A DNA stretch of 64,000 nucleotides. Source: a phage. The notes below the pieces were generated by a model. That model saw nothing but the letters and a program-made list of their open reading frames with translations. It was not told where the DNA came from and ran no database searches. A program made the position numbers and the translations under genes. The stretch lies in sequence record PV808484.1, one strand, 5' to 3'. Of the stretch, positions 708 to 58,872 are shown in pieces; within the stretch, counting starts at the first letter, position 1, and every line of letters begins with the position of its first letter.

Positions 708-711
708 TCAA

Positions 712-735
712 AGCCCCTTCGGGGGCTTATTATTT
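712..735 (+). terminator. rho-independent terminator
   Basis: stem AGCCCC / GGGGCT with TTCG loop followed by TATTATTT, directly after stop at 705-707. Confidence 0.6.
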
Positions 736-14482: not shown

Positions 14483-15155
14483 ATTTTTGAGCCTCCTCAT
14501 AAGAGATAAAAGTTTTACCATTGCGAAGATCCTCCAGTGATTGTTTATATTGTTCCCAGTTTACACCAATCCCCTGTTCTTTCTCTTCTTTTGATAGATT
14601 CGCAAAAGGTAAAGGATTGTCTCCAAACACATCGTCAGGATGGATAAACGCCATAATTCGAATAGGACATGGTACGCCTGGAATACCTCGGTTCAAACCT
14701 GCCAGCGGAACGCGCTGAATCCACTCTGCATCTTCATATCCATAACCGTGGGTGTATGAGCGGAAATAGCCAGCTTTCTCAATAACTGCACGGGAATACA
14801 TACCAAACTGGCACATCCCTAGTTCCCAAATAACCACTTCCCCTTCAATACCTTTTACTTTATCTTTAAAGTATTCAGGCATACCAAAGAAATCCCAACC
14901 ATTTTCCTTCGCCTGTTTTACAAAATATGTTTCCCAACCTTGAACAACAGGATAACAATCATCATCAAAAATAAACCAGTAGTCATACCCTTCGTCATAA
15001 AACTTTTTCATCAATTCATTACGAGCATATGCAACACCTTTTCGTTCCCGATCATACTGTACAACAAAAGTAGCATTAGGATCAGTCACAAGATAATCTT
15101 TAAGAGGACGCTTACCTACAGTAATAACACCAACACCAATTTTTGTATTTTCCAA
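14469..15155 (-). CDS. putative glycosyltransferase (GT-A, family 2-like)
   Basis: 228 aa; GVGVITVGKRP; DxD-type FIFDDDCYP. Confidence 0.55.
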   Translation of the reverse strand: MENTKIGVGVITVGKRPLKDYLVTDPNATFVVQYDRERKGVAYARNELMKKFYDEGYDYWFIFDDDCYPVVQGWETYFVKQAKENGWDFFGMPEYFKDKVKGIEGEVVIWELGMCQFGMYSRAVIEKAGYFRSYTHGYGYEDAEWIQRVPLAGLNRGIPGVPCPIRIMAFIHPDDVFGDNPLPFANLSKEEKEQGIGVNWEQYKQSLEDLRNGKTFISYEEAQKYGKS

Positions 15156-18417: not shown

Positions 18418-19212
18418 TTACGCTTTTGCTCCAAATTTTTTAACCCACTCGCCAAACTCTTCGGATAACAGTTTATCGTAGAGTTCTTCATCAGACAAGG
18501 ACAAATCTGCAATACCGATAAAATCAACATTATCGTATTCTTTTGCCAAGTCTTTCAGGAATTTAAAGTTTGCATTACCTACACCAACCATAAACCAGTA
18601 AACAGGCGTATTGCGGTGTTTGTTCAGTAAGCTACGTACTGCTGAAGTATCCATGTTCTCCCCGTCAGTTTGGAAGAAAATCATTGCAGGAGTACGATCA
18701 ACTTGTGCATCAGTATCTACAACCTGTTCTACAACAGTACGTGTAACTTCTACAAGTTCTTTTTTACCAGTTAGTTTAGCAAGGAAACCCTTAGCCGGAA
18801 CTTCTTCATACTCAACGACTTCGCGTGTAATATTTTTCATAGGTACACTACCGAAGTATGTATCATAGATCTCTTGCATTACTGGAGCATAGGCTGTACC
18901 ACCGTTGATGCAAACATTAGACATGCAAGAGCCGACATAATCATCATACACATCAGCCGTTGCAGGAGGCAGTTCAAAAGAAGAACTATTGAAAGCCCAC
19001 ATGTCAATCTGTGCATTGTCATCAAACTTCATACCAAACGGCAGCAGTTTACCTACAAAATCACTTACAGTGCCATCACGATACAGCTCACACATACTAC
19101 CCGAAATATCTAAGGCGCTACCGACACGAAGAACAACATCGTTAATCTTTTTCTTACGCAGAGATACAGTAAGAGTTTCTTGACGTTTTTTAAGACTGAT
19201 TTTATTGGACAT
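18418..19212 (-). CDS. vWA-domain protein (TerY-like)
   Basis: 264 aa; MIDAS-like DISGSM; TerD-like N-terminal strand (ISLKK...TVSL). Confidence 0.5.
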   Translation of the reverse strand: MSNKISLKKRQETLTVSLRKKKINDVVLRVGSALDISGSMCELYRDGTVSDFVGKLLPFGMKFDDNAQIDMWAFNSSSFELPPATADVYDDYVGSCMSNVCINGGTAYAPVMQEIYDTYFGSVPMKNITREVVEYEEVPAKGFLAKLTGKKELVEVTRTVVEQVVDTDAQVDRTPAMIFFQTDGENMDTSAVRSLLNKHRNTPVYWFMVGVGNANFKFLKDLAKEYDNVDFIGIADLSLSDEELYDKLLSEEFGEWVKKFGAKA

Positions 19213-19213
19213 A

Positions 19214-19483
19214 TTATTTCTCCTTTCTGACTGTAATGTTAGTAACTTCTAAATCCACTTCTACCACTTCTGTATCATATAAAATACAGTTAAGTTGACC
19301 TCTTTGTGAACCGTTCAGACACATTGCTTGGTTTGTATTAACCTTAATAAACACTAAGTTTCTGAACGTATCTAAACCAGCATCTTGATAGGCAACATAA
19401 TATACGAATGTATCACCTGTGTCAAGTTCTCCAAAACATTTAGGTTCATCTGATTTGTCGTCTTTGATATTAAATTTAAGCAC
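19214..19483 (-). CDS. hypothetical protein
   Basis: 89-aa ORF. Confidence 0.45.
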   Translation of the reverse strand: MLKFNIKDDKSDEPKCFGELDTGDTFVYYVAYQDAGLDTFRNLVFIKVNTNQAMCLNGSQRGQLNCILYDTEVVEVDLEVTNITVRKEK

Positions 19484-20039
19484 TGTCTTCTCCTTTACCT
19501 GCTCTCAAGCCTAAATAGAAAGCCTCTCTGGTGATCTTTTGCAACTCGTTTAAAGAGATAGTTACAACTAAATCATCTTCAATTTCTAGCTTTGAGTCTT
19601 CTTCTGTCTCAATGCAAGTATTATGCACTTTGTGGTAAGGATTGTCAACACGTTTAAATTTATTATTTTCAGTGCTGAAGAAGCAATCTGGATCTTCTTC
19701 TCCATCACCCCAGCCCTGGTTAGGGTCTTCTTCAGATCTTTCTGTTGGGATCTCACCTGTAAAATGCTCTTCTAATACCATAGCAATACCATCCCCAAGA
19801 TCGGAAGAGAACATCAAATTACAAACTTCTTCCCAAGGCATAGACCACTTGAATCTTTTACGATTGCCATGTTTATCTTCTTCGTTAGAGAAAACACTAC
19901 CATAGCTATCATAATTGCCATACATCTCTTCAATAACTTTACCACCTTTCAAAAGAAATAGGTAGCAAGGAGAGCCATCGAAAGAGGTAGAAAGAGCAGC
20001 ATTACCAGACTCTTTGCATAAGAAACTAAAGCACCCCAT
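19476..20039 (-). CDS. hypothetical acidic protein
   Basis: 187-aa ORF. Confidence 0.5.
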   Translation of the reverse strand: MGCFSFLCKESGNAALSTSFDGSPCYLFLLKGGKVIEEMYGNYDSYGSVFSNEEDKHGNRKRFKWSMPWEEVCNLMFSSDLGDGIAMVLEEHFTGEIPTERSEEDPNQGWGDGEEDPDCFFSTENNKFKRVDNPYHKVHNTCIETEEDSKLEIEDDLVVTISLNELQKITREAFYLGLRAGKGEDSA

Positions 20040-20239
20040 TATACACCAGCCTTAAGATCAATTAAAGCCAAAGTTGTTTCAGAGTGTGTTTGCTCGTCTA
20101 CAGGTGCAGTCATATGATAATACAAAAAGTCTTCGGCATCATACCAATCTGACTCTTGACCTTGTTTCCAACCATCAATGAAAGCATCTTCCATAATGGT
20201 TTGTAACTCTTCACGAGTTAAGTGAATATCTTTACTCAT
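20039..20239 (-). CDS. hypothetical protein
   Basis: 66-aa ORF. Confidence 0.4.
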   Translation of the reverse strand: MSKDIHLTREELQTIMEDAFIDGWKQGQESDWYDAEDFLYYHMTAPVDEQTHSETTLALIDLKAGV

Positions 20240-20472
20240 TACACATTCTCCTCTTTTACCAATTCCATCGTTGAACTATCAAAACCATCTTTAGAAGAAT
20301 AGGTATAGACAGAACGTAGTTCTCGCAGGACAGTGAATACATTAGGATCATCTAACCAAGCATCCTGGAGGAGAACATAACGATCTTCATTGTCGTACTG
20401 GACGGCAATCATAGAACCAGACAGTTTGTAAATTTTAATATTCATAATATATTTCTCCTTAAAGTAGACCAC
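20239..20472 (-). CDS. hypothetical protein
   Basis: 77-aa ORF. Confidence 0.4.
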   Translation of the reverse strand: MVYFKEKYIMNIKIYKLSGSMIAVQYDNEDRYVLLQDAWLDDPNVFTVLRELRSVYTYSSKDGFDSSTMELVKEENV

Positions 20473-21562
20473 GTTTAACAGTTTGAATCATACCATCTTC
20501 AAGAGATTGTACTTCTTGGATGTAATCAATACGAGCAGCACGGGCTTCAGTATTGATTCGGTTAGTTTCTTCTAACATTTTAACTAAGTTTTCTTGATCG
20601 CGACGTAATGTTTCAATATCCAATACTTGACGATTAGCAAGTTGTGTAGCTTCAATTTGGTTTTGTGCAGCCAGATCACTACCCATTGCAATAGCAGCAT
20701 TAAATTCGTTCAGTACATTGTTCTGTGTATCTGCTGCTTTCTTCTGGCGTAGACTTTCAATATACATAGAAAAGTTTGCAGAGTAAGCAGGGATAACATT
20801 ATTCACAATATTACGGGCTGATCGCATCAAACTTGCAGATACTTTCTGCATACTTTGTACACGTGGCCCCATCTGAACACAGAGTAAACGTAAGGCTTTC
20901 AGGTCTGCAATACGAATTTCAAGCAGATCCATAGTATCACGAGTACGTTGACGCTCTTCTACTTCATTTTCAGGTAGTGTATTAAGGCGAACTTCTTCTT
21001 TTTCATAAGTAGCTGTTAGAAGCTCTATATCCCTGTTTAAGCTAAGAGCATATTTGGCAATAGCCTCTTCTAAACGTTGCAGATATCGTAAAGAATCTTC
21101 TTCTTTTTTCAAGTCTGTTTGGAGTGTCTTTACCAAACCTTCAATACGATTATTGATGGTGTCAAATTCTCCAAACAAATCTTCTTTCATACCTAATACT
21201 TTCTTAACTAACTTACCTAAACCTTTAGATTGTTTAATAGAATTAGGATCAAGTTGCTTTGCTTGCTTAATAAGTGCAGTTAAACGTTCACTCATTTCAT
21301 CTCCCTGAGATGAACGCTGGTGTTTAAGCACTTCAGCATTAAGGTTACGAAGAGTAAGTCCTGCATCAGCACCAACTTGTTCAATCTCTTCACGAGACAT
21401 TGGAGGCAGCATTTGTACAGGTCGTGCAACAGCAGGGGCATATACAGGGCTTGCATCCATAGCACTTGGAGCAAACAAAGACTTACTTTTTTCTGTTGTT
21501 GCCGTGAATACACTCATTTCAGACGGTTTGCTTTTTACGGCACTGATAAAAGGACTGGACAT
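20459..21562 (-). CDS. coiled-coil protein, TelA-like (toxic anion resistance family) by context
   Basis: 367 aa, largely alpha-helical/coiled-coil; size and ter-gene neighbourhood suggest TelA; no diagnostic motif confirmed. Confidence 0.4.
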   Translation of the reverse strand: MSSPFISAVKSKPSEMSVFTATTEKSKSLFAPSAMDASPVYAPAVARPVQMLPPMSREEIEQVGADAGLTLRNLNAEVLKHQRSSQGDEMSERLTALIKQAKQLDPNSIKQSKGLGKLVKKVLGMKEDLFGEFDTINNRIEGLVKTLQTDLKKEEDSLRYLQRLEEAIAKYALSLNRDIELLTATYEKEEVRLNTLPENEVEERQRTRDTMDLLEIRIADLKALRLLCVQMGPRVQSMQKVSASLMRSARNIVNNVIPAYSANFSMYIESLRQKKAADTQNNVLNEFNAAIAMGSDLAAQNQIEATQLANRQVLDIETLRRDQENLVKMLEETNRINTEARAARIDYIQEVQSLEDGMIQTVKRGLL

Positions 21563-21630
21563 TCAATTTCCTCCATATTCTTTAGTAGATGGTGATACCT
21601 CTGTACCACCATCATAACACAAATTAAGTA

Positions 21631-22482
21631 TTAAACAAACATATCTAAATAATTTGTAGTAATAAATGCTCCATCTGCTTCCAGATTAACATAACCAGTA
21701 GCATTAGTGGTTAAGAAATCCAGATCGAAAGACTCTTTAACACCCCGTACCTCAACACGAGAGATATCGAATACAGGTAGTGTAACAGCCTCTTCGTGCA
21801 ATACCGTACCTTTGTAGGTTGCCTTAATGATAAACTTGATATTACCCGTTCCAGCATCATACAAAACACTTTCAAACCCTTTGAGAGTATACTTATCACC
21901 AGAAGTGAAGTGCAAAGTTGCTTTGTTTACAGTACGTTTCTTACGAGGAGTTCCTTTCACACGTTTATGATCACTACGTTTTTTGTACTTATGGAATAAT
22001 ACAAACGATACACTATCAAGAAAGGTATCAACATCAAGGATTTTAATATCCTCTGTTGCAGCAAATTTTGAAGTCGTTGCATCAAAATGCTTTTCCCTGC
22101 GATCATACATAAAGATATCAAAACGATCTTCTAAATCAAACAAATTATGTATCTTAATTTCAGAATGCTTGCACATTGCAGCAACCTTAAACTCTTCAAA
22201 ACGTGGGTGTTCTACCAGTTCTTCAAGTTTTACACCAAAGACAGTATATGGCTTCGAAGTTTTTTCTGGCGTTGGCATTACAGAAGCATAATCACCGATT
22301 GCGCTTTTAAAGCAAAATTGTTCTTGACCTGTATTTTTACCAACGAATTTACAATATTCGTCATCGTGCATACTTTCTTTGGTAGTACCAACAAACTCAA
22401 AACCATCTTTATTCTTCTCAAGAATTTCTTGATTAAAGATCCAACCTTCCAGGCGATACACTTTACCAACTTCTAGTTTCAT
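21631..22482 (-). CDS. hypothetical protein
   Basis: 283-aa ORF. Confidence 0.5.
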   Translation of the reverse strand: MKLEVGKVYRLEGWIFNQEILEKNKDGFEFVGTTKESMHDDEYCKFVGKNTGQEQFCFKSAIGDYASVMPTPEKTSKPYTVFGVKLEELVEHPRFEEFKVAAMCKHSEIKIHNLFDLEDRFDIFMYDRREKHFDATTSKFAATEDIKILDVDTFLDSVSFVLFHKYKKRSDHKRVKGTPRKKRTVNKATLHFTSGDKYTLKGFESVLYDAGTGNIKFIIKATYKGTVLHEEAVTLPVFDISRVEVRGVKESFDLDFLTTNATGYVNLEADGAFITTNYLDMFV

Positions 22483-22517
22483 CTGTTTCTCCTTCTTATT
22501 TAATCTGTATTAAATTA

Positions 22518-23108
22518 TTAACGACGACGTGAGCTACTAAAACTACGTTTCGACGAAGAATAACTTTTCGAAGACTTACTATAAGAGCTAATAGGACTTG
22601 AGTAAGACTTACGAGCAGAGTAATCACTATTCACTTTTGTTGTTGATGGGCGTGAATACGTTTGTACACTTTGCTGCTTAATTGTGTTTTGTTTAGTGGT
22701 TGTATATGTATTTACAGGTTTATCATAAAAACTACGCTTTTGTGTTGTATACGATTTACTGTTAGTTGTAGGAGCAGCATTGTTATTAATAATGGTTGTA
22801 TTGCTACCACCATCTCTATAACCACCACCGCCACTGTTACCACTTAACATATGACCAAGAAGCATACCTGTAGCAAACTCACCTACACCAGAAGAACCAC
22901 TGCCGCCTCCTTGCACAACAACTGTTGAAGGTTGTGCAGGTGCTGCTTGAACAACTTGAGGTGCAGGCTGATTTACATATTGTTCATCTACCATCTGATT
23001 TGGTGTTTGTTGGTAACGTTGATTTTGTACATTTTCAGAATCATCACAACCTACCAGCAATGCACTACCTAATACAACTGCAACAATAAAAGATTTAATG
23101 TTTTTCAT
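22518..23108 (-). CDS. lipoprotein with Gly/Ser/Tyr-rich low-complexity tail
   Basis: start moved to ATG 23108 (MKNIKSF..); lipobox LLVGC; GAGAGGG upstream. Confidence 0.55.
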   Translation of the reverse strand: MKNIKSFIVAVVLGSALLVGCDDSENVQNQRYQQTPNQMVDEQYVNQPAPQVVQAAPAQPSTVVVQGGGSGSSGVGEFATGMLLGHMLSGNSGGGGYRDGGSNTTIINNNAAPTTNSKSYTTQKRSFYDKPVNTYTTTKQNTIKQQSVQTYSRPSTTKVNSDYSARKSYSSPISSYSKSSKSYSSSKRSFSSSRRR

Positions 23109-23340
23109 TTGTAACCCTCTCATTTAAAGTCTCAACACAATTTTTAAAATCCCTAGAGAAACAATACATCTGTTCTCCGTTCCTGTTGATAGTAATTGTA
23201 TGGTTATCAATATATGTTGTCAAGATAAAAATCAAACAAAACAACCCTAAAGCAAAACAAATATTTTCAAACAGAATCCAAAGAACACGTAAAACTACCA
23301 TCAGATCACCTCAACAAAGCCCCCGAAGGGGCTTAATGAA

Positions 23341-24318
23341 TTAAGCAACAGTCTGGTCTTCTTTTTCAGGGAAGATTAAACTTGCAATAACACCCAGCCC
23401 CAGAGTACCTAACACAATATACATACTGATCGTCGGATCAATGTGTGCTGGCAGGAAACTCACTTTTGCGTGCAGAGTTTCTGCAAACGGGTGATACATC
23501 AGTTTTACACCCACAAATACCAGGACTACGATAACTGCTTTCTCCAGATGAACCAAATATTTCAGTGCAACACTAAGGACAAAGAACAGAGCACGTAGAC
23601 CTAAAATTGCACACAGCATTGAAGAAAATACAAGCAGAGGTTCTTGTGTCACTGCAATTACTGCTGGAACAGAGTCTACTGCAAAGATTACGTCAACCAT
23701 TTCCATTACAAACACACAAACCAGAGCCGGAGTTGCTACACGAACACCATTTTTGATTGTGAAGAACTTCTCACCATCCATCTGATCAGATACAGGGAAC
23801 AGCTTACGAACAATGCGAGTAGCCCAGTGTTTAGAGTAATCAACTTCTGCGTCATTATCTCCAGCGAATACCATTTTAGCTGCACAGAAAAGGATGACCG
23901 CACCGAAGAAGATATTAACATACCAGCCCAAACTCAACAAGTAAGTGCCTACTGCTACAAACACACCTCGGAAGACAATCGCACCTGCAATACCCCAAAG
24001 TAGAATCTTGTGTTGCAAGTGTGTGCTTTTAATACCAAAACTTGCGAATACTGCCACAAATACTACTAAGTTATCTACAGAAAGAGATTTCTCCAACACA
24101 TACCCACTCAAGAACAAGCTCGCAAAATCAGCACCGTGTTGGAAGTATACAAAACCATAGTAGGCTAATGATACCCCAATCCAGAAAATTGACCAGCCAA
24201 TTGCAGATTTAAATGAAATTTCTTTGTTTTCTCTGTGTCCAAAGAAATCAATACAAATTGACAAGACTAAAATACCCACTAAAACAACCACATCAATAAT
24301 TGGGAAACCCAGTTGCAT
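23341..24318 (-). CDS. TerC-family integral membrane protein
   Basis: 325 aa, multi-pass hydrophobic; LSVDNLVVF and AVDSVPAV motifs typical of TerC/Alx. Confidence 0.7.
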   Translation of the reverse strand: MQLGFPIIDVVVLVGILVLSICIDFFGHRENKEISFKSAIGWSIFWIGVSLAYYGFVYFQHGADFASLFLSGYVLEKSLSVDNLVVFVAVFASFGIKSTHLQHKILLWGIAGAIVFRGVFVAVGTYLLSLGWYVNIFFGAVILFCAAKMVFAGDNDAEVDYSKHWATRIVRKLFPVSDQMDGEKFFTIKNGVRVATPALVCVFVMEMVDVIFAVDSVPAVIAVTQEPLLVFSSMLCAILGLRALFFVLSVALKYLVHLEKAVIVVLVFVGVKLMYHPFAETLHAKVSFLPAHIDPTISMYIVLGTLGLGVIASLIFPEKEDQTVA

Positions 24319-24336
24319 TCTCTTCTCCTCTTTAAT

Positions 24337-24355
24337 GCGGAGGACAATCCTCCGC
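24337..24355. other. GC hairpin immediately upstream of TerC RBS
   Basis: GCGGAGGA-CAA-TCCTCCGC. Confidence 0.35.
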
Positions 24356-24395
24356 TCTATGTCTTATACTATAAACTGTTTTTAAAGAAAGTCAA

Positions 24396-24644
24396 CTAGT
24401 TCAGTTCTGTAATTTTAAGTTTATCTTCTTTGTTAATGATAGGGAAAGCTACAGCATCACCTACATCATCAATAAAGCAAATAGCAAGACCACCTTCCAC
24501 TTTGCTAACCTGACCGTTAAAAGCATGATACGGGGCAGGAACTTCATCCCCATCTTCAATGAGAATAGCCTCGTAAACCTTGCCGATAGTACAATCACGG
24601 GTGTTTATAAATTTTTCAAGCACTTCAACATTTACTTTACGCAT
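24396..24644 (-). CDS. hypothetical protein
   Basis: 82-aa ORF. Confidence 0.45.
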   Translation of the reverse strand: MRKVNVEVLEKFINTRDCTIGKVYEAILIEDGDEVPAPYHAFNGQVSKVEGGLAICFIDDVGDAVAFPIINKEDKLKITELN

Positions 24645-24658
24645 ATAAAGATCCTCTC

Positions 24659-24865
24659 TTATTTGTTAGATTGAAAGATACCACGGAGTACCGCAAGAAT
24701 GAACGTCACACAGACTACACTCCAAAACGTTACAGGAACATGATGCCAGTCTAAGCCGATAATGTCAATCATATAGTTGTATGCTAAAAGCAGTAGCCAA
24801 CTAGGGATTAACACAATCAAGAACACAACAATAAAACAACCTAATACTGCTAAAACACCTGCCAT
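24659..24865 (-). CDS. small membrane protein
   Basis: 68 aa, two hydrophobic segments. Confidence 0.45.
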   Translation of the reverse strand: MAGVLAVLGCFIVVFLIVLIPSWLLLLAYNYMIDIIGLDWHHVPVTFWSVVCVTFILAVLRGIFQSNK

Positions 24866-24874
24866 ACTTTCTCC

Positions 24875-25591
24875 TTATTTCAGTTTGTAAACAATTACAT
24901 TTAAACCTTTGTTTACTAGAGTTTCTTCGATCATAAGTTTTACAATATTCCAAGAACCTCCAGCCAAACCACAACCAAGCATTGGTAAACCTACAATTTT
25001 ACCGCCTGAAGATACAACATCGTCTCCCATACTATCTAGCGCATTGTAGATAGCTTCATAATTCAGGTCACGCTTACCTTCCTCACGACGACTATAACCA
25101 TATTGTCCATATAAATTATAAATTGTCAAATTGTTTTCTGTATATTTGGTAAACGTACCTAATTTTTTATAATCACCACGTTTAGTGGCACAATCTGCTT
25201 TAAACGCACCAGGCCACTTGCTTTTAATTTTTGGTGCAATACCACTACCCATAGTGCAAAAACAGTTACAGCAGTGTGCTATAGCGTCTATATCGCCTCT
25301 CTCGGCTGCTGCTAAAAGATCACCGTATACCTCAATGATACCTGCCGGATAACTTGTTACAATTTCATCTTCCCAATACATTTTCTCTACACCACCGATC
25401 AGTGCAAAGTTTTGTGTAATGCGATCATCAATATAGTTAAGACCTGAAACATACACAGCGTATTCATCCTGTGCTGTAATACCTTGCACACGAATTCTTA
25501 AGACACCATCTTTATCTGTTGCTACACGCCCAAAATCTTTTTCTGTAATATTGGTGATAGGATCTCCGAAAGTCATTACTTTATTAGACAT
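24875..25591 (-). CDS. macro-domain protein, TARG1/OARD1-like (DarG-type ADP-ribose hydrolase fold)
   Basis: start moved to ATG 25591; AHCCNCFCTMGSGIA and GLPMLGCGLAGGSW match TARG1 landmarks HC..MGxGIA and GCGL. Confidence 0.7.
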   Translation of the reverse strand: MSNKVMTFGDPITNITEKDFGRVATDKDGVLRIRVQGITAQDEYAVYVSGLNYIDDRITQNFALIGGVEKMYWEDEIVTSYPAGIIEVYGDLLAAAERGDIDAIAHCCNCFCTMGSGIAPKIKSKWPGAFKADCATKRGDYKKLGTFTKYTENNLTIYNLYGQYGYSRREEGKRDLNYEAIYNALDSMGDDVVSSGGKIVGLPMLGCGLAGGSWNIVKLMIEETLVNKGLNVIVYKLK

Positions 25592-26441
25592 AATAATCCC
25601 CTTTAACATTAGATTTGTTGATAATGTTGCTTTCAAAAAATTGACGTAGGAAATCAAAGTTCTCTTTGTATTTTTCAATGTTATTGTAACCTTCTGCAAG
25701 GCAACCAAAGAACAGTTGTTCTACATAATACAAAGGAAGTTGTGAAAGTGCAATTTTAAAATCAACTTCGCTTTGACTCATTAGATACTTAATAGGACGA
25801 ACCAAACATTTAGCATCAGTTTCTTGCTTAATCATTTTAATAAAAGCTGCCAGGTTATTGATATAGTTGAAGTTAAGTGCAGCTTCGGTATTGGCTTCTG
25901 TACCTTCATACTTTGCAAAGTACAGGAAAAACGTATCGTTTTCAACACCTTCTTTGTCTAAAATTTCAATAAGTTTTTCTTCGTGTGTTCCTGTAATATT
26001 AACATCATCAATGAAAACCAGAGTTTTATTACCCCAGAAATCACGATTGATAGAGAAAGTGTCACCATCGATCAAAGCCTTACGATCTTCTTTACTAAGA
26101 AATCCATAATCATTGATATAGCTCACTTTACGATGAACGATATCCCACTCCACTGCTTTACCTCCTTTGATAGAGATTAGGTAGTTGAGGTGATCTACAA
26201 AATGTTCAGATAACACTGTAGCTGCATTTTTCACATAGTTATATGGAGATGGAATAACAACAAAACTTTCATTTACCAGTCGTTCTTCATACTTGGAAAA
26301 GAAACTTTCAGCCAGAATGCGCCCCATTCTTTTTGCTGCCTGGTTACTACCAAACTTTAACTTGGAATAATCTGCAATGTTAAATTTTGCTTCCTTCAGG
26401 TTAGTAAAAGTATTAGCAAAATGTTGAATTTGATTACGCAT
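25584..26441 (-). CDS. type-I phosphoribosyltransferase-domain protein
   Basis: 285 aa; PRPP-binding-type motif LVFIDDVNITGTHEE. Confidence 0.55.
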   Translation of the reverse strand: MRNQIQHFANTFTNLKEAKFNIADYSKLKFGSNQAAKRMGRILAESFFSKYEERLVNESFVVIPSPYNYVKNAATVLSEHFVDHLNYLISIKGGKAVEWDIVHRKVSYINDYGFLSKEDRKALIDGDTFSINRDFWGNKTLVFIDDVNITGTHEEKLIEILDKEGVENDTFFLYFAKYEGTEANTEAALNFNYINNLAAFIKMIKQETDAKCLVRPIKYLMSQSEVDFKIALSQLPLYYVEQLFFGCLAEGYNNIEKYKENFDFLRQFFESNIINKSNVKGDYYV

Positions 26442-27090
26442 TAATAAGTTCCTCTTTTTTAAGTTTAGCCAACAAGTCTTCTGGATTAATAATATGACAG
26501 AACTTCATCCCTATGTCAACAGCTTTTCCATCATAGATCAAACTATCTCCAACGTGTAAAATCTCCTCTGGTGCGAGATCAAATGTTACCATTTCATCAA
26601 AAGAGAGTTTAAAAAACCTAGGATCTGGTTTACACAAGCAAAACTCATCAGAAAAATGCATAAAGTCGAATGGTAATTTTGTCAAGCTAGAATATACAGC
26701 TAAGAAACTACCAGGTACAAAATTGGTATTGCTTTTAATACTCAAAGAATAGGTTGAACTTAGCTCTTCCAACTTCTTGCAAAGTTCAGGGTTTAATATT
26801 GGAGGATGTTTTATAAACATTGCTAAACAGTCTCTTTTTAACCCATCTACTTTATCAAGATCAATGTTCAAATGAGCAGAAAGTGTTTCCCAAGCATTTC
26901 TAGATGTTCCACAAATGCCTTTTTCTGCTTTTAAATCCAGGAGAGTTTTTACCTCTTTATATACGGTAGCTGCTTCTACCTCAGAACAAGAGGCATACTC
27001 GGCAATAACCTTGTTGCGTTCTTCTGCATACAAAGGATTAGCAGTAATAAGAGTATTCCATACATCAAAAGAAATATGCTTAACAGTCAT
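26434..27090 (-). CDS. HAD-superfamily hydrolase (phosphatase)
   Basis: start moved to ATG 27090 (GGAGG upstream); FDVWNTL motif-I-like, HVGDSLIYDG motif-IV-like. Confidence 0.6.
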   Translation of the reverse strand: MTVKHISFDVWNTLITANPLYAEERNKVIAEYASCSEVEAATVYKEVKTLLDLKAEKGICGTSRNAWETLSAHLNIDLDKVDGLKRDCLAMFIKHPPILNPELCKKLEELSSTYSLSIKSNTNFVPGSFLAVYSSLTKLPFDFMHFSDEFCLCKPDPRFFKLSFDEMVTFDLAPEEILHVGDSLIYDGKAVDIGMKFCHIINPEDLLAKLKKEELINA

Positions 27091-27092
27091 TT

Positions 27093-27248
27093 TTAATCCT
27101 CCGTCCAAAAGAATATCATCTGCTTAATTTTATTGATCTCTTGATGTAGTAACTTTCCAGCATGTGATTGATCTTTAATATTGACAGCAAGAATTTCAAG
27201 CTCCGTTAGTTTTTCTTGGATAGCTTTATATTCATCATCTGTAAGCAT
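27093..27248 (-). CDS. small hypothetical protein (51 aa)
   Basis: not in ORF track; ATG 27248 with AAGGGGAAG upstream; stop abuts HAD gene start. Confidence 0.35.
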   Translation of the reverse strand: MLTDDEYKAIQEKLTELEILAVNIKDQSHAGKLLHQEINKIKQMIFFWTED

Positions 27249-27463: not shown

Positions 27464-27470
27464 ATAAATA

Positions 27471-27490
27471 AAGGAGGCTTTCGCCTCCTT
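27471..27490 (-). terminator. rho-independent terminator
   Basis: AAGGAGGC-TTTC-GCCTCCTT downstream of ATPase gene stop. Confidence 0.5.
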
Positions 27491-27497
27491 TTATCAC

Positions 27498-28658
27498 TTA
27501 GTAAGAACGACCACCAAACACATACTCTGTGTAGTTTTTACGTTCTTTGTTTTTAATAACAACTTCAATGTTGTTACCTTTATCATCGGTGAACATAAAG
27601 TGATAACCGTCACCACCCATTGTACGGATGTGTTTTTCATCATACGTTAGCAAGATACGGTCTACACCCCAGTAGTAGTCACCTTCTTCATCTTTATCTT
27701 CTACGGTAACGATCCCTTCCATTTCAGGAAGATGCTCTTCACCTAGTTTATGGTCTACAGCTACAACATAACGATTACCGCTAAACAAACCTTGTGCTGT
27801 CATACCGTCAATATCGGTATCTGCCGAAACATCTCCTGTACGATCTACACCGTTAACTTTCAGAAGTTTAACCTCTTTTGCCGCATAGCGGTGTTCAGTA
27901 ATACTGATACCCATCAATGCAAGTGCATCAGAGAATTTGTCATTAGGGTAACGGTTAAGTTCTTCTACTAATGACTGAACAATATCAAAGTTCAAATCCA
28001 CGGAGAGATTATAAAGCGTTTCAAAATCTGGTAAGAAGGCTTTGTTCTCCAGATTTTTAGCCAGATAATCATCCATAGTAGCTTTAGGTAGTTTCTTATA
28101 GCTAAAACTGTAGAAAATACGGCTAGGACGATTACGCAAAAATTCTGATACATAACCATCATTTTTAGTCAATACAAACAGTTTGTCGTAGCCACCAACA
28201 CCATCCAGCAGGGTAAGCAAACCATCTTGTGCATCTTTTTCAGCATACAGTTTATCAAATTCATCGATCATAATCATCACAGGTTGTGTGATTTTAGACA
28301 TAAAATTGATAAAACCTTCGCCATTAAAAGCACTACCGATAGAAATAGTAGGAATACCCATTTCACGAAGAGCAGAAGACAGCATTTTAGCTTGCAAAGT
28401 TTTACCGCTACCTTTCGTACCTTCAAGGAGAACACCTGTGTTTTTACCTTTGCGGCTAAGGAACGTTTTGATAATACGTTCTGATTTATCATCAGTATCA
28501 CCGTATGTTACTGAAGGGACTTCCATATCGTTTTTAGGATACAGGAAGAACTCACCACTTTGAGTAACACCTACACCAAAAGTTCCTGCTGGAATTTCTT
28601 CAATATCTGTACCAGATTTCTGACGCAGAAAGATTTGATTGCCGAATACTGTAAACAT
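27498..28658 (-). CDS. P-loop ATPase, paralogue A
   Basis: 386 aa; Walker A GTKGSGKT, Walker B MIMIDEFDK; clear paralogue of 42904..44031. Confidence 0.6.
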   Translation of the reverse strand: MFTVFGNQIFLRQKSGTDIEEIPAGTFGVGVTQSGEFFLYPKNDMEVPSVTYGDTDDKSERIIKTFLSRKGKNTGVLLEGTKGSGKTLQAKMLSSALREMGIPTISIGSAFNGEGFINFMSKITQPVMIMIDEFDKLYAEKDAQDGLLTLLDGVGGYDKLFVLTKNDGYVSEFLRNRPSRIFYSFSYKKLPKATMDDYLAKNLENKAFLPDFETLYNLSVDLNFDIVQSLVEELNRYPNDKFSDALALMGISITEHRYAAKEVKLLKVNGVDRTGDVSADTDIDGMTAQGLFSGNRYVVAVDHKLGEEHLPEMEGIVTVEDKDEEGDYYWGVDRILLTYDEKHIRTMGGDGYHFMFTDDKGNNIEVVIKNKERKNYTEYVFGGRSY

Positions 28659-28678: not shown

Positions 28679-29149
28679 TTAGTCAGATTCCCAAATGTTG
28701 TCTTTCTTAACCCACATTCGTTGATTATCTGAACCTCTATAACGTTTCGTTGTTGGTTGATTCATATCATACTTACCATCTATCACTATGTCAACCAGTT
28801 TTTTAATTTTCTCTGGAATTTCTTCAAAAAGATATCCTGTATATAAGACAATATCTTTTTTGTTTCCAAAACAATCTCTTACCTTCTCAAGAACATACTC
28901 TACAGTGTCAATGTTCTCTTTGTCAAGAGGTTCACCACCTAAAACTGTTAATCCTTTAATGAAAGGTCGAGATAAATCTTCCAAGATAAGATCTAATGTT
29001 TCAGCAGTGAACTCTTGTCCGTAGCTATACGACCAGGCTTTCTGGTTAAAGCAGCCACGGCAACCGTGGCTACAACCGCTCACCCACAAAGAGCATCTTA
29101 CACCGTCACCGTTGAGCATGTCAACAGGTTCATATCCGGCGTAATTCAA
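28679..29149 (-). CDS. nrdG: anaerobic ribonucleotide reductase activating protein
   Basis: 156 aa; radical-SAM cysteine cluster CSHGCRGC; directly downstream of nrdD. Confidence 0.75.
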   Translation of the reverse strand: MNYAGYEPVDMLNGDGVRCSLWVSGCSHGCRGCFNQKAWSYSYGQEFTAETLDLILEDLSRPFIKGLTVLGGEPLDKENIDTVEYVLEKVRDCFGNKKDIVLYTGYLFEEIPEKIKKLVDIVIDGKYDMNQPTTKRYRGSDNQRMWVKKDNIWESD

Positions 29150-30975
29150 AAGTGTTTCTCCCTTTCTAGTACCTCTTGCATTTTACCTTTATTATAAGGG
29201 CGAGAGTTAGGAGCAGAAAGGTATCCTGACACTCTTCTGATCACAGATATGGATTCTTCTTCATGATTTCCACAACTTGGACACTCGAAGCCTTTAGCTG
29301 TTGCCTTAAATTCACCATGAAAACCACATTTGAAACACTGATCTACAGGTTGGTTCACGCCAAAATAAGGAATTTTGTTGTAGGCATAATCTACAAGAGT
29401 TTCCAGTGCTTGCAAGTTATTTTTAAGGTTTGGTGTTTCTACATAACCTATGTTCCCACCATTACTAATTTGTGCAAAACCTTCCTCATAATCCCATTTT
29501 TGGAACGGGGTAGTGTGCATCCATACAGGTTGATGGAAAGAGTTTGTCAAGTAGTCACGATCAATAGAACCAGGATAGCGATCATTTAACGCTTTGGCAA
29601 ATTTATAGCACAAGGATTCTGCTGGTGTTCCATACAAACTAAAAGCTAAACCAGAACGTTCTTTAAATGTGCAACAGATATCCTTCATATATTGAAGGAT
29701 GTTTTTACCCATTGCTTTTGGATTGGTGTTATTTGGGTATAAAATCTCCATAGCTTCTGCTAAACCTACATAACCGATACTAATAGAGGCATAACCACCT
29801 TCAAATAATTTACCAATCTCTTCATTAGCTTCTAGTCGAGCTAAAGCCCCTTCCATAAACAATGTAGGGTTTTGAGATGCTTTGGTATGTCTGATACGGT
29901 TAACACGTAGCATATGTGCCTTATACGCCATCTCCATATGTTGTTCCAACAGTTCAGTAAATAAGATGCCCCTTTCACGGGACTCTGCTGCAATGATAGG
30001 TAAGTTTAAAGAAACTACGCCTAAGTTGAAACGACCATCATATTTTTCACCTTGCTCTGTTGCATAATATGACAAGAAACTACGGCAACCCATGCTTGTG
30101 ACGCGACCATCTGAAGATCCTGTAACTTCTTTGTTTAAAGGTACAGAGATAAAATCAGGATAGATGCGTTCAGCACAACACTCCATTGCCAGTTGCTTCA
30201 GATCATAATTTGGATCGCCAGCTTTCATGTTAACACCATCTTCCAAGAAGAAGATAACTTTAGGAAACACAGGAGTTACCCTATCTTTTCCTAACCCTTG
30301 TTTGTGCACCATTAGGTAGTTTTTAGTGATCATTCTACCAAAAGCAGAGGTATCCAAACCTAAACTAATTGTTATAAAAGGTGACTGACCATTTACACTC
30401 ATTAGGGTGTTCACCTGGTAGATTAAAGTTTGCATTGCATCATAGACCTGTTTATCTACCATACGCATAGCAATATCATAATCGCCAACATCGGCATATA
30501 TTTTGTTAAAACTTGCTTTAACGTATTGACTAAGCCCAGTATCAATATGTGCACAAGTTTGTCCACCATATTGGCTAGAAGCTACTGCTTGAATAATTTG
30601 AGTTAGGACAGTAGTTGCTACGCCAATAGATTTTGGTTTTTCAATATGTGCATTACCAATACGGAAACCGTTCTCAAGCATATCTTGGTAATTTACCAGG
30701 CAACAATTAGTTAGAGGTGAGAGTAAATAATCTAAATCGTGAATGTGACCATACCCACTTTTATGCCATTCTGCCAGATCTTCCGGTAAAATATGGGTCA
30801 TTGCCATGTGCTTGCTTAGGATACCTGCTAGTAAGTCTCGGTGAGTATTAACAATCATTGCAGGTTTGTTTGCATTTTCACGAGTAAATTCTTCGGATGT
30901 TTGTTCGAGGAATCCGATTACATCCTCATATAGTTTTTGGGTCATTAATCCTCCGTGGAAAATAAAAGCCAGCAT
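29146..30975 (-). CDS. nrdD: anaerobic ribonucleoside-triphosphate reductase
   Basis: 609 aa; C-terminal glycyl-radical motif RVSGYLS; GGAGG RBS. Confidence 0.85.
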   Translation of the reverse strand: MLAFIFHGGLMTQKLYEDVIGFLEQTSEEFTRENANKPAMIVNTHRDLLAGILSKHMAMTHILPEDLAEWHKSGYGHIHDLDYLLSPLTNCCLVNYQDMLENGFRIGNAHIEKPKSIGVATTVLTQIIQAVASSQYGGQTCAHIDTGLSQYVKASFNKIYADVGDYDIAMRMVDKQVYDAMQTLIYQVNTLMSVNGQSPFITISLGLDTSAFGRMITKNYLMVHKQGLGKDRVTPVFPKVIFFLEDGVNMKAGDPNYDLKQLAMECCAERIYPDFISVPLNKEVTGSSDGRVTSMGCRSFLSYYATEQGEKYDGRFNLGVVSLNLPIIAAESRERGILFTELLEQHMEMAYKAHMLRVNRIRHTKASQNPTLFMEGALARLEANEEIGKLFEGGYASISIGYVGLAEAMEILYPNNTNPKAMGKNILQYMKDICCTFKERSGLAFSLYGTPAESLCYKFAKALNDRYPGSIDRDYLTNSFHQPVWMHTTPFQKWDYEEGFAQISNGGNIGYVETPNLKNNLQALETLVDYAYNKIPYFGVNQPVDQCFKCGFHGEFKATAKGFECPSCGNHEEESISVIRRVSGYLSAPNSRPYNKGKMQEVLEREKHF

Positions 30976-30987
30976 TAAGCTGGCTTT
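30965..30987 (-). terminator. rho-independent terminator upstream of nrdD
   Basis: AAAGCCAGC / GCTGGCTTT stem followed by U-rich tract on minus strand. Confidence 0.55.
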
Positions 30988-31034: not shown

Positions 31035-31985
31035 TTAGTCAAGGTTTTTGGTAATACGTGTGCAACCGTCAGAAGTCAAACCGTCAACTTGAGTTTCCCA
31101 AGTACCATGAATATTTCGGAACAATGTTGTTACACCTTTTGGTTCATTAATAATGATTGCCATAACAAGTTTAGGATCGATAACAGACATAATCTTTTCC
31201 TCAATACCCTCTGTAATAACATTATTGCGCACAATATTAATTGCATCTTCTTGTACAGTAAGAACACTTACGTTCTTAAGAGTATATACCTGCTGTGTAG
31301 TGTAAATGATACGAACATAACTTACAGAACGAGTAGGCACAGGTTTACGCGGTCGGCGAAAACGTGGTTTTGGTGAAGATTCAGTTTTACTTTCATCTTT
31401 TGAATAATACTCCTCAAACAGTTTAGTAAATGTTTTTACATCAACTACAAACCGATCTTTCCGATATGGAGAATTCTTATGTGCACCATTAATACCACTG
31501 TTTTCATCGAAGAAAGTAATGTTTTCTTCAGTTGAATACATTAGATAATGATCTGCATTGTTCCAATGTGGTTGTGGACAACGAGAATTACAAACGGAAA
31601 GCAGATAATTAATATTTTCTTTCGTGGCCTCAGTATCCAGGAAACACGTATTATGCACAGTCAGTTGTACTTTTTCAGCCATATCCTTTTCTTTATCCTC
31701 ATTGGTAAGATATTCAGTACGAAGAATTTCCAGAAAATTTTCAGGTGTTACTTCCATAAATGTATATTCAGGATGAAGTTCCATATATTCAAATCCACAA
31801 CCATCTAATTGCTGTAGAAAGTTAGGGTAGAAGAACAAATCATTAACACTGTGAATCAGATCATTGATTTCTGCTTCAGTTGTGTAACCAAAACTTTTGT
31901 GAATTGCCTCGTTAAGAATATGCAGGATACCCATCTCTTCTGCTGCTTTTTTAACTTCCAGTTTATTAGCGTAAAATGCAATCAT
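31035..31985 (-). CDS. hypothetical protein
   Basis: 316-aa ORF. Confidence 0.5.
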   Translation of the reverse strand: MIAFYANKLEVKKAAEEMGILHILNEAIHKSFGYTTEAEINDLIHSVNDLFFYPNFLQQLDGCGFEYMELHPEYTFMEVTPENFLEILRTEYLTNEDKEKDMAEKVQLTVHNTCFLDTEATKENINYLLSVCNSRCPQPHWNNADHYLMYSTEENITFFDENSGINGAHKNSPYRKDRFVVDVKTFTKLFEEYYSKDESKTESSPKPRFRRPRKPVPTRSVSYVRIIYTTQQVYTLKNVSVLTVQEDAINIVRNNVITEGIEEKIMSVIDPKLVMAIIINEPKGVTTLFRNIHGTWETQVDGLTSDGCTRITKNLD

Positions 31986-38247: not shown

Positions 38248-38412
38248 TTAGCGTACAAAGTTAACTTCTGCTTCTTTCAGCTTTGACACTTCTACATAAC
38301 CACCATGATCATCTTTAATCCATTCTTTTCCTTTACGGATGATAACAGGATATGTAGAGTGAGTAAGTTTAGGTACAGATCTTTTTGTTTTAGTGATAGA
38401 AATGTTTTGCAT
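38248..38412 (-). CDS. small hypothetical protein (54 aa)
   Basis: not in ORF track; ATG 38412 with AAGGAG 6 nt upstream. Confidence 0.4.
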   Translation of the reverse strand: MQNISITKTKRSVPKLTHSTYPVIIRKGKEWIKDDHGGYVEVSKLKEAEVNFVR

Positions 38413-38472
38413 AGTAATCTCCTTAGTAAATTTTACATAGAGTCTAGATTATTTAGTAGGTAGAGTCAATAA

Positions 38473-38739: not shown

Positions 38740-38904
38740 AGTATTCTCCTATACAGTAATATACTCTGTTCCTGCCCCTCCATGAGTGACAGGAACAATA
38801 TCTATAGAGAATACTAACTCGCTTCGCTCGTCACCTTTCAGGTTTAGGGTAGCATGTTTTTCTGAAAAAGTCAATACTCTCCACAAAACTTTACAAAATA
38901 CTTT

Positions 38905-39177
38905 TTACATAGGTACAACAGAGTCTGTTTTGAAGTCGTACATATGATTTACACCTGTGATTTTTGACATAGAGATCGCACGTTTAGCACCTGCAATTAC
39001 CTGGTCTGTCTTCTTAATCTCTTCACGGAACTTACGCACAGTTAGAGAGAAGAAACGATGATCCATCCATTGACGATTCACACGATCACGCTTGAAGTGA
39101 CGGAAATCTTCAATCTGTTTATTGCGCAATCGGCGCAGTACATGCAATAATTTATAGTAAGGGTGTTTATTTTTCAT
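38905..39177 (-). CDS. hypothetical basic protein
   Basis: 90-aa ORF. Confidence 0.45.
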   Translation of the reverse strand: MKNKHPYYKLLHVLRRLRNKQIEDFRHFKRDRVNRQWMDHRFFSLTVRKFREEIKKTDQVIAGAKRAISMSKITGVNHMYDFKTDSVVPM

Positions 39178-42266: not shown

Positions 42267-42440
42267 ATGAGTTTCTTTGTTACAGTATTTATGGCTATTT
42301 GGATTGTAGTCTCACTCGTTCTTTTCCTGGTGGGTTGTCTGGAAGAGATTAAGAAAGCGGTTATTTGCGGTTTCTTTGGCTTTATTATCTCTCCTGCCTG
42401 GATGTGGTTCTTCATTATGATTGGTTTCCTTAAAAGGTAA
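42267..42440 (+). CDS. small membrane protein (57 aa)
   Basis: not in ORF track; two hydrophobic helices. Confidence 0.4.
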   Translation: MSFFVTVFMAIWIVVSLVLFLVGCLEEIKKAVICGFFGFIISPAWMWFFIMIGFLKR

Positions 42441-42454
42441 GTGAGGAATAAAGA

Positions 42455-42892
42455 ATGAGTAAAACAAACGCAATCGCAGATAAAGCAACGGATGTACTTC
42501 TGAACATGGTTAACGTCACTATTCAAACAATGAGTGATGTTGTGGAGTTTGGAAAACAACAAATTCCAGAAGTAATCCATCAATTATTAGTGTGGAAAGC
42601 AGTATCCGCAGGTTTATGGCAACTTTTTAGTATTTGCTTTATGTTTATTACTTTTATTGCTGTGCGGAACCTCGTAAAAGCAATTAAAGATAAAGAATGC
42701 CTGTGGTCACGAGATCGCTATGGTGAAGTATCTGCTTTACCTATTGTTGGTCTTGTTGTCTGTGCTTTCTTTTTCTTTTTAGGATTTGTTATTTTCTTTT
42801 CGAATTTTGATTGGCTAAAAATCATTATTGCACCAAAAGTGTATCTGATTGAATTTGCTGCTGATTTAATTCGTTCATCTCAACAAAAATAA
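42455..42892 (+). CDS. membrane protein
   Basis: 145 aa, multiple hydrophobic segments. Confidence 0.5.
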   Translation: MSKTNAIADKATDVLLNMVNVTIQTMSDVVEFGKQQIPEVIHQLLVWKAVSAGLWQLFSICFMFITFIAVRNLVKAIKDKECLWSRDRYGEVSALPIVGLVVCAFFFFLGFVIFFSNFDWLKIIIAPKVYLIEFAADLIRSSQQK

Positions 42893-58730: not shown

Positions 58731-58872
58731 TTAGGTATATATAGAATAATTGATAGGGAAATCCTATACTAATTCCTCCATTAATGATGTTTCTATGTTG
58801 CTGTTCTTGTAACAGATGAAAAGACGCTGTATGATGTGTAGCATGAAACGTAAATTTATAAAGGAGTCTGAT

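Follow-up and report, generated by a model that had tools for sequence, protein, structure and literature searches.

A stretch of 64,000 nucleotides from the phage sequence record PV808484.1, here called the window, encodes two P-loop ATPases on opposite strands: A1, an open reading frame (ORF) of 386 amino acids (aa) at 27498..28658 on the minus strand, and A2, an ORF of 375 aa at 42904..44031 on the plus strand (coordinates from the ORF listing). The two are true paralogs, which is practically beyond doubt, and their motifs and predicted structures place them in the classical clade of AAA proteins, with a fold closest to that of Bcs1 among solved structures. They are probably anciently diverged paralogs of classical-clade AAA+ ring protein remodellers with variable client-binding domains; the protein-remodeller mechanism itself is given a slightly better than even chance.

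Paralogy and the C-terminal domain

BLASTP aligns residues 2-253 of A1 with residues 3-256 of A2 (119/254 identities or 47%, 70% positives, 2 gaps, E=1e-81), a span extending from the N-terminal domain through the entire AAA module to the lid. The original prediction, which had proposed two paralogous P-loop ATPases at these positions, had named a similarity limited to the P-loop as the outcome that would speak against paralogy; since the similarity extends through N-terminal domain, core, and lid, this outcome is not what was found. Coordinates and strands are right, and so is the placement of A1 in the leftward block beside nrdG and of A2 in the rightward block, which starts near 40.9 kb. 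Concerning the motifs quoted as common to both proteins, GTKGSGKT, LLTLLDG, and NRPSR are indeed found in A1 and A2, whereas IDEFDK is exact in A1 only: the Walker B context reads IMIDEFDK in A1 and IIFDEFDK in A2 (I versus F before DEFDK), such that the common part is DEFDK. A tblastn search of the six-frame window with A1, A2, and both C-termini yielded no third copy. A larger segmental duplication was considered and rejected, the 325-aa ORFs near A1 (23341..24318, TerC) and near A2 (44106..45083, CapR+T5orf172) being unrelated.

In an alignment of 70 family sequences, A1 and A2 are identical at 55% of positions in the AAA core and at 47% in the lid, compared with 14% in the C-terminal domain. 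Divergence is much greater in the peripheral domains, among them the N-terminal one (28% identity), than in the motor. The C-terminal ~120 aa had been described as divergent, which holds true insofar as they are not aligned by BLASTP and share only ~14% identity; however, hhalign and the order of predicted secondary structures identify them as the same homologous domain. Structure prediction yields beta-rich domains with their elements in the same order in both proteins, divergent in sequence and not separate domains. In hhalign, the C-termini of the A1 clade and the A2 clade match with E=2e-4 over 112 colinear columns, and the two match an intermediate clade (the P0041 group) with E=1e-9 and 3e-8; several intermediate proteins align over the full length with both A1 and A2 in BLASTP. 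As judged from these profiles and models, the C-termini of A1 and A2 are one fast-evolving domain, not different domains.

This domain is the fastest-evolving part in every comparison made, within both clades and not just between the paralogs. A1 and its ortholog from a Klebsiella phage are 94% identical in the AAA core and 49% in the C domain, and the mean identity within clades is 89% in the core versus 54% in the C domain for the A1 clade, and 74% versus 40% for the A2 clade. Among close A1 alleles, 13 of the 15 variable amino-acid positions are situated in the C domain. Ratios of nonsynonymous to synonymous substitution rates (dN/dS) were computed for A1 alleles only, and close alleles were used because dS against distant orthologs is saturated. 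In eight allele DNAs, residues 1-250 contain 33 polymorphic codons with synonymous changes only and 1 with an amino-acid change (dN/dS ~0.004), whereas the C domain contains 21 and 9, respectively (dN/dS ~0.11). This indicates that the A1 motor is under extreme constraint and that selection on the A1 C domain is relaxed but still purifying; overall, nothing signals positive selection.

Fold, motifs, and AAA clade

AlphaFold2 (AF2) models calculated from the family alignment have a mean predicted local distance difference test (pLDDT) score of 86 for both A1 and A2, and the order of their secondary structures matches. The common predicted plan consists of a five-stranded N-terminal beta domain (residues ~1-45), an AAA core (~55-190), a four-helix lid (~192-250), and a beta-rich C domain (~260-370). 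In A1, the small N-terminal beta domain comprises residues 1-50 (28509..28658; pLDDT 82-95) with strands at residues 2-5, 8-11, 17-19, 26-31, and 37-41, and is followed by the alpha/beta core (residues 51-190; 28089..28508), the helical lid (residues 191-250; 27909..28088), and the beta-rich C-terminal domain (residues 251-386; 27501..27908), in which strands are predicted at residues 261-268, 297-302, 332-337, 344-348, 351-357, and 363-370; all of these lie on the minus strand. In A2, all on the plus strand, the N-terminal beta domain comprises residues 1-53 (42904..43062), with modelled strands at residues 3-6, 9-12, 18-20, 27-32, and 38-43, the core residues 54-193 (43063..43482), the helical lid residues 194-253 (43483..43662; AF2 model), and the beta-rich C-terminal domain residues 254-375 (43663..44028). 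The A2 model superposes over its full length on those of distant phage orthologs, with TM scores of 0.79 and 0.76 for the two best and 0.59-0.68 for the other full-length phage matches. The N-terminal beta domain of A1 has no match among Pfam families or PDB sequences.

The best Pfam family for both proteins is AAA (PF00004), with 29.4 bits for A1 and 38.9 bits for A2 against a gathering cutoff of 21.2; eight relatives score 33-47 bits, with matches reaching profile positions 122-127 of 131. Invariant in the 70 sequences (A1 numbering) are G80, G83, G85, and K86, D132 and E133, N166, and R177, P178, and R180. Walker A is GTKGSGKT in both proteins (28398..28421 in A1, 43150..43173 in A2) and conforms to GxxGxGK[ST], and Walker B conforms to hhhhDE with IMIDE in A1 and IIFDE in A2 (DEFDK at 28251..28265 and 43306..43320). 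LLTLLDG is situated at 28200..28220 and 43351..43371. The invariant sensor-1 Asn (N166 in A1, N169 in A2) ends the motif LTKN (28161..28172 and 43399..43410) and follows a predicted strand at residues 159-165. RPGR is a motif of classical AAA proteins, and by comparison with it R177, P178, and R180 of NRPSR (28119..28133 and 43438..43452) may be read as the second region of homology, in the form that has two arginines spaced by three residues. The lid contains the invariant residues F224, D225, E232, E233, and N235 and no invariant Arg or Lys among the 70 sequences, which fits the classical clade. At the position of pore loop 1, F111 of A1 (in SAFNGEG, 28314..28334) is aligned by HMMER to the Trp of KWVG in FIGNL1, and Y114 is its equivalent in A2 (in QAYSDAN, 43237..43257); this column is Tyr or Phe in 67 of the 70 sequences, and the residues following it are not the canonical hydrophobic-Gly. 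All residues for nucleotide binding and hydrolysis are kept in both copies. Both proteins are acidic (net charge -16 in A1 and -12 in A2).

Searches of PDB sequences with the single proteins found only weak matches to classical AAA proteins (FIGNL1, spastin, p97 D2), and a profile of the A2 clade matched Cdc48/p97 D2, VAT, AFG2, NVL/Rix7, and Msp1 with E values down to 4e-7. In Foldseek searches of the PDB with A2, Bcs1 chains rank at the top (E=9e-10), followed by YjoB, Rpt subunits, Rix7, FtsH, NSF, and Cdc48. Bcs1 (PDB 6u1y, 8tby), a mitochondrial AAA protein that translocates the Rieske protein in folded form, is the best structural match for both paralogs and their closest solved structure, by a small margin over other classical AAA proteins and at 15-18% identity. 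Unlike Bcs1, the phage proteins lack a transmembrane anchor (no transmembrane segment is predicted, and the maximal Kyte-Doolittle hydropathy over 19 residues is ~1.0 in both), show no Pfam match to BCS1_N at E <= 0.1, and possess an additional C-terminal beta domain. Bcs1 is also absent from the PDB sequence matches, i.e., from all 29 for A1 and from the best 60 each for A2 and for the A2-clade profile. Strict orthology of A1 and A2 to Bcs1 is not demonstrated.

The classical AAA unfoldases and segregases used for comparison were Cdc48/p97 D2, VAT, AFG2/SPATA5, NVL/Rix7, FIGNL1/spastin, Msp1/ATAD1, PAN/Rpt, and the AAA module of FtsH. With these, the phage proteins share Walker A and B, the sensor-1 Asn, NRPSR in place of RPGR, the aromatic residue of pore loop 1, a PF00004 score above threshold, and the lack of a sensor-2 Arg. 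There are differences as well: the beta2-alpha2 segment of A1 is shorter and has no predicted helix, A1 and A2 are putative single-ring proteins of ~380 aa with neither a peptidase domain nor HExxH, and their N- and C-terminal domains have no detectable relatives. Concerning the Trip13/Pch2-like ATPase of CBASS (PDB 6p8v_A), the likeness is confined to the generic AAA module (14% identity), and no CBASS Trip13/Pch2 model is among the PADLOC matches.

Several other assignments were considered and rejected. The labels 'FtsH-like protease' and 'Zn metalloprotease' are unsupported because a transmembrane segment, HExxH, and a peptidase domain are all absent (no Pfam peptidase family matches at E <= 0.1 in either protein), and the C domain is beta-rich. 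STAND NTPases are represented by a match of A2 to nSTAND3 (PF20720; 29.3 against a cutoff of 27.2), which overlaps the stronger AAA match, whereas A1 with 19.0 remains below the cutoff; furthermore, the NTPase module is followed by a lid and a beta domain, not by helical or winged-helix and sensor-repeat domains. A phmmer match of A2 residues 201-291 (43504..43776) to the influenza NS1 effector domain (E=8e-4) is judged to be due to chance, because the A2-clade profile does not make it any stronger and does not list it among its 60 best matches. At the end of the C domain, ~45 residues weakly resemble the N-domain barrel of Cdc48 (0.8 bits), a similarity that is not significant and is a lead only. 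Domain fusions offered no functional clue, since all Pfam matches of P0192 and P0250, two longer members of the family, and of six others are of the AAA type.

Family membership and origin of the second copy

Both proteins are full members of the PHROGs v4 family phrog_2376, from which neither of them differs and whose label goes no further than 'ATPase': A1 matches with residues 1-376 (E=5.7e-104; profile positions 2-359 of 363) and A2 with residues 1-367 (E=6.6e-108; profile positions 1-357 of 363). The A1 and A2 regions are 97-99% identical in DNA to those of dozens of Justusliebigvirus genomes (phi92-like, Stephanstirmvirinae), e.g., Escherichia phage EmilieFrey/Bas61, and the window is assigned to this genus as that of a phi92-like coliphage. 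A protein identical to A1 has been deposited under the name 'ATPase [Escherichia phage alia]', A1 is 99% identical to its ortholog Phi92_gp190, and A2 is identical to Phi92_gp221, the phi92 ATPase. The phi92 record (FR775895.2) places a 'hypothetical tRNA' inside Phi92_gp190 on the opposite strand (642..729 of the extracted locus), which is probably spurious because ARAGORN finds no tRNA anywhere in the window. Deposited names of the ATPases vary among 'hypothetical protein', 'ATPase', 'putative ATPase or Zn metalloprotease', 'FtsH-like protease', and 'regulatory inactivator'.

When 1.84 billion cluster representatives (50%-identity clusters) were searched exhaustively with a profile, 3,225 proteins of this family were found at E<=1e-30; the best 150 of these have lengths of 347-443 aa, with two exceptions of 523 and 617 aa. 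With tblastn, the family is found in 290 of 50,697 phage records. The named members are all from phages: Stephanstirmvirinae, the jumbo phages GAP32, CBB, BF, XbC2, and Atu_ph07, Grimontviridae (7-11), phages of Aeromonas, Proteus, and Acinetobacter, Herelleviridae of Bacillus, Enterococcus, Lactobacillus, and Brochothrix, large siphoviruses of Lactococcus and Staphylococcus, Microbacterium phage Pumpernickel, and a Kyanoviridae phage of Ochrobactrum. The family is thus large and, in the annotated collections examined, restricted to phages. Iyer et al. (2021; PMC7824862) report 'orthologs of BCS1' in all three of their jumbo-phage groups and suggest a membrane-proximal role in virion assembly; these proteins probably correspond to phrog_2376.

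Two copies are present in the listed Justusliebigvirus records and in Klebsiella phages of the KP2025 / phi1_175008 type, except for 92CQ (a 129.8-kb record), in which the family is found in one place and is A2-like. The sister genus Phapecoctavirus possesses one copy, which is A2-like (64-67% identity) and which, in phage tuntematon, keeps the order of ATPase and then endonuclease found after A2. A2 is the syntenic ortholog of this single Phapecoctavirus copy, and A1 is an additional copy common to related Klebsiella phages. The slot of A1 is empty in tuntematon (nrdD, nrdG, two small ORFs, HAD, PRTase, macro), whereas in Klebsiella phage KP2025 the A1 ortholog is followed by the same series of small ORFs, HAD, PRTase, and macro with no nrdDG adjoining. 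A functional link between A1 and nrdG was therefore rejected: their adjacency is incidental, because it is conserved neither in KP2025 (A1 without nrdDG) nor in Phapecoctavirus (nrdDG without A1).

In a neighbour-joining tree of the 256 conserved columns (100 bootstraps), the A1 clade is supported by 100 and the A2 clade by 98, A1 plus the intermediate clade by 79, and A1, intermediate, and A2 together by 61, with the jumbo-phage sequences outside. The split between A1 and A2 predates the divergence of Justusliebigvirus and Phapecoctavirus. A1 derives either from a duplication followed by loss in Phapecoctavirus or from an old horizontal acquisition, and duplication within the lineage and horizontal acquisition are not separable because the node joining the A1 and A2 clades has a bootstrap value of only 61%. 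That A1 is a xenolog from another phage, inserted between nrdG and the Ter-like gene cluster downstream of it, and not an in-lineage duplicate appears rather unlikely. Besides the low value of the joining node, such an origin would account for the AAA core of A1 being 56% identical to that of jumbo phage GAP32 and 55% to that of A2, and for the discrete slot of the gene, which is empty in Phapecoctavirus and differently flanked in KP2025. However, the tree still groups A1, intermediate, and A2 to the exclusion of the jumbo-phage sequences, A1 is flanked by neither repeats nor mobile-element genes, and the GC content of A1, overall and at third codon positions (GC3), is indistinguishable from that of A2 and nrdD, so any transfer would have to be old.

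Mechanism and gene neighbourhoods

As remodellers, the proteins would each assemble as a ring, either hexameric or heptameric as in Bcs1. ATP would be hydrolysed at the subunit interfaces, with the arginines of NRPSR acting in trans, and the aromatic residue at the position of pore loop 1 would grip a protein client, resulting in unfolding, extraction, or translocation. The fast-evolving N- and C-terminal domains would choose the client or the partner, and the clients, or the contexts of action, would therefore differ between the paralogs, much as the original prediction had suggested with its two target specificities. A number of observations weigh against this reading. The short beta2-alpha2 helix, the usual mark of the classical clade, is absent from the AF2 model of A1, which shows a loop of 6 residues (108-113) between the strand 104-107 and the helix 114-121; there are weak matches to hidden Markov models of Hda, DnaC-like proteins, and clamp loaders; and the node joining the two clades is the poorly supported one mentioned above. 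A1 itself sits in a block of DNA-metabolism genes, the ortholog of Acinetobacter phage Bestia directly follows primase/helicase and DNA polymerase, and in the literature searched no functional study of, or experiment on, any family member was found.

The same residues could also serve a single hetero-oligomeric ring in which A1 and A2 co-assemble as specialised subunits of one machine, comparable to Pex1/Pex6, Rpt1-6, or Yta10/Yta12. Paralogous classical AAA proteins often form hetero-hexamers, the catalytic residues of the interface, arginines included, are kept in both proteins, and genes of the A1 clade are seen only in genomes that also carry one of the A2 clade, the listed Justusliebigvirus and Klebsiella-phage records all being two-copy with the A2-like exception of 92CQ. 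Co-assembly is nevertheless improbable, given that 14 kb separate the two genes, which lie on opposite strands and in different transcription blocks, and that Phapecoctavirus and most other phages carry one copy. Because these phages manage with one copy, the homo-oligomer is taken as the ancestral state.

A function as accessory ATPases of DNA replication (helicase loader, clamp loader, or Hda-like), acting on DNA or on components of the replisome, is equally hard to reconcile with the data and is regarded as distinctly unlikely. Like clamp loaders, DnaC, and Hda, the phage proteins have a minimal AAA+ core with neither a pre-sensor-1 hairpin nor a helix-2 insert, in addition to the weak profile matches. 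These scores are, however, far below the cutoffs (Hda 29.8 bits against 194.8, IstB 19.9 against 200), and the AF2 models show no initiator-specific helix, with just 5 residues between alpha2 and beta3, and a beta domain after the lid where a helical collar or winged helix would be expected of this group. There is no invariant sensor-2 Arg; two arginines of the second-region type and a conserved pore-loop aromatic are found instead. Loaders and initiators are absent from the 50 best Foldseek matches in the PDB, A1 and A2 are strongly acidic, and most neighbourhoods are not replication modules.

A Bcs1-like translocase or chaperone for virion assembly, i.e., membrane-proximal handling of folded head-bound proteins as proposed for the 'BCS1 orthologs' of jumbo phages (Iyer et al. 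2021, PMC7824862), is very unlikely, despite Bcs1 being the top structural match of both paralogs, the presence of the family in jumbo phages such as GAP32, CBB, Atu_ph07, and XbC2, and the two small predicted membrane proteins that precede A2, since neither a transmembrane segment nor, at E <= 0.1, BCS1_N is found, the membrane protein preceding A2 has no homolog at that place in Phapecoctavirus, and in every context examined the genes lie among early, auxiliary, and nucleotide-metabolism genes and not in structural modules.

The A1 gene starts 20 nt downstream of an NrdG-like ORF of 156 aa (28679..29149), which is preceded by an NrdD-like ORF of 609 aa (29146..30975), both on the minus strand. 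A terminator-like hairpin with a 9-bp stem and a T-rich tail, found in a consensus scan, is situated 7 nt past the A1 stop (27470..27491, minus strand), and a second one, also with a 9-bp stem, lies at 30965..30987 on the same strand. Because the two hairpins bracket nrdD, nrdG, and A1, these three genes are suggested to form one transcription unit in this phage. A sigma-70-like site with 11 of 12 matches (28794..28766, minus strand) lies inside nrdG upstream of A1; as the counts in the sigma-70 promoter scans are not above the shuffled expectation, no conclusion on timing is drawn. Just upstream of nrdD, a protein of 316 aa (31035..31985, minus strand) matches phrog_15930 ('ribonucleotide reductase') from end to end and has no Pfam domain; this label may be a guilt-by-position annotation.

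Downstream of A1 and on the same strand follow two small ORFs and, according to Pfam, a HAD hydrolase (26434..27108), a ComF-like PRTase_3 protein (25584..26441), and a Macro-domain protein (24875..25708), and further on TerC (23341..24318), TelA (20459..21562), and a vWA-TerF-like gene (18418..19212), which together constitute the Ter-like cluster (18418..27108). At least its first part (HAD, PRTase, macro-type 'phosphatase', TerC, and 'tellurite resistance' gene) is present in Phapecoctavirus without A1.

A2 is preceded by the ORFs 42267..42440 and 42455..42892 (plus strand), each with two strongly hydrophobic segments and predicted to encode membrane proteins, the latter of which belongs to phrog_3054 and ends 11 nt before the start of A2. 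A conserved membrane partner was considered for A2 and rejected, the upstream gene not being homologous in Phapecoctavirus. A2 is followed, on the plus strand, by a gene for a protein of 325 aa with CapR (E=6e-24) and a weak T5orf172 match (44106..45083), likely of the homing-endonuclease type, and then by a NADAR gene (45084..45635; Pfam E=2.5e-36). The first 25 bases of the latter (45084..45108), which are all that the comparison covers, are identical to the forward cloning primer of NADAR^Bas60, which is reported to neutralise the defence system DarTG1 (PMC11257639).

Genes related to NAD+ and ADP-ribose also occur near the ATPase in other phages. In IMG/VR, 80 loci encoding relatives of the ATPase were surveyed within 5 kb on either side, by clustering of ORFs and by phmmer with seed proteins. 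NAMPT is found in 13 loci, in 8 of them directly upstream (at -74 to -94 nt), an NMNAT-Nudix fusion in 10, a Macro-like gene in 20, and rIIA and rIIB in 14-15; in five loci, the Macro-like gene adjoins the ATPase, on its upstream side in four and on its downstream side in L067. In the clustered families, all 19 Macro ORFs are on the strand of the ATPase, and so are NAMPT, NMNAT-Nudix, rIIA, and rIIB. Of 78 loci, 26 carry NAMPT, NMNAT-Nudix, Macro, NADAR, or PRTase_3 on the strand of the ATPase within ~5 kb; when loci are collapsed at 70% ATPase identity, this holds for 17 of 35 groups.

Among cultured phages, Ochrobactrum phage OC possesses NadV and, further along, PnuC, NadR, a gap of 28 nt, the ATPase, an HD hydrolase, Pnk, and Rnl1. 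In Microbacterium phage Pumpernickel, a tRNA array surrounds the ATPase, a Macro-type gene follows 1.1 kb further downstream, and RtcB is close by, and in Salmonella phage 7-11, Prs-NAMPT (NARP1 type) follows the ATPase after 3-5 kb. In Agrobacterium phage Atu_ph07 (4989..6799 of the extracted locus), 72 nt separate the ATPase from a downstream ClpP gene, after which comes NADAR (COG3236), with Macro within 5 kb. The adjacency of ClpP could hint at a pairing of unfoldase and peptidase; beyond Atu_ph07, ClpP is found only at 3 kb distance in one group of three IMG/VR loci, too thin a basis, and a ClpP partnership was rejected. NAMPT plus NMNAT (NARP2) and Prs plus NAMPT (NARP1) have been experimentally shown to be counter-defences against NAD-depleting immunity, in a study which makes no mention of an ATPase (bioRxiv 10.1101/2024.02.11.579819). 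The neighbourhoods across unrelated phages point to an early, auxiliary, or counter-defence programme (NAD+ salvage, ADP-ribose removal, rII, RNA repair) and not to virion genes.

The remodellers could be an unrecognised ATP-driven component of phage islands for NAD+/ADP-ribose counter-defence, each paralog serving a different module; this is so far a speculative and quite unlikely proposal. The ATPase would pull apart or inactivate NAD-consuming or ADP-ribosylating effectors of the host, or activate the NAD-reconstitution enzymes of the phage; A1 would serve the cluster of HAD, PRTase_3, Macro, and Ter-like genes, and A2 the region of NADAR (reported as anti-DarT). It is considered because adjacency on the same strand recurs in unrelated phages in different arrangements, i.e., with NAMPT or PnuC-NadR immediately upstream, Macro on either side, Prs-NAMPT 3-5 kb after, or NADAR nearby. 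By a rough estimate, no more than 10-20% of similarly sized genomes would show such genes within 5 kb of a gene picked at random, and we infer that 6 of about 10 independent cultured-phage contexts exceed this rough expectation. To be set against this, LAh_8, Bcp1, pEa_SNUABM_50, Tunturi_3, and Bestia have no NAD or ADP-ribose neighbour. The association is a lead and not a result, because the neighbourhood counts were obtained without matched control loci and with shared ancestry only partly removed.

Further duplicated genes are found elsewhere in the window. Two tandem paralogs on the minus strand (12552..13496 and 13508..14521) are 40% identical over 324 aa (E=4e-78), the protein of 12552..13496 showing a weak glycosyltransferase-like Pfam match. 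Four small paralogs (~120-190 aa, 31-47% identical) are situated in the rightward block on the plus strand (58816..59241, 59163..59609, 61534..61902, 62812..63396), and two very small ORFs (38305..38463 and 38786..38947, plus strand; 40% identity over 37 aa, E=2e-5) may either stem from the duplication of a small gene or match by chance.

Paralogous AAA ATPases whose accessory domains have diverged are commonplace, and the duplication of A1 and A2 is real but ordinary; taken alone, it adds little, both genes having already been deposited as 'ATPase' and belonging to one PHROG family. The analysis corrects the misleading labels 'FtsH-like protease', 'Zn metalloprotease', and 'regulatory inactivator'. 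The family lends itself to study in tractable phages, for instance Bas60-62 of the BASEL collection, because it is large and, in the annotated collections examined, phage-restricted, with a very strongly constrained motor and no known client. The NAD+/ADP-ribose neighbourhood is the sole new lead and is testable in these same phages; if true, it would constitute a new class of active anti-defence mechanism, in which a protein-remodelling motor is linked to counter-defence.

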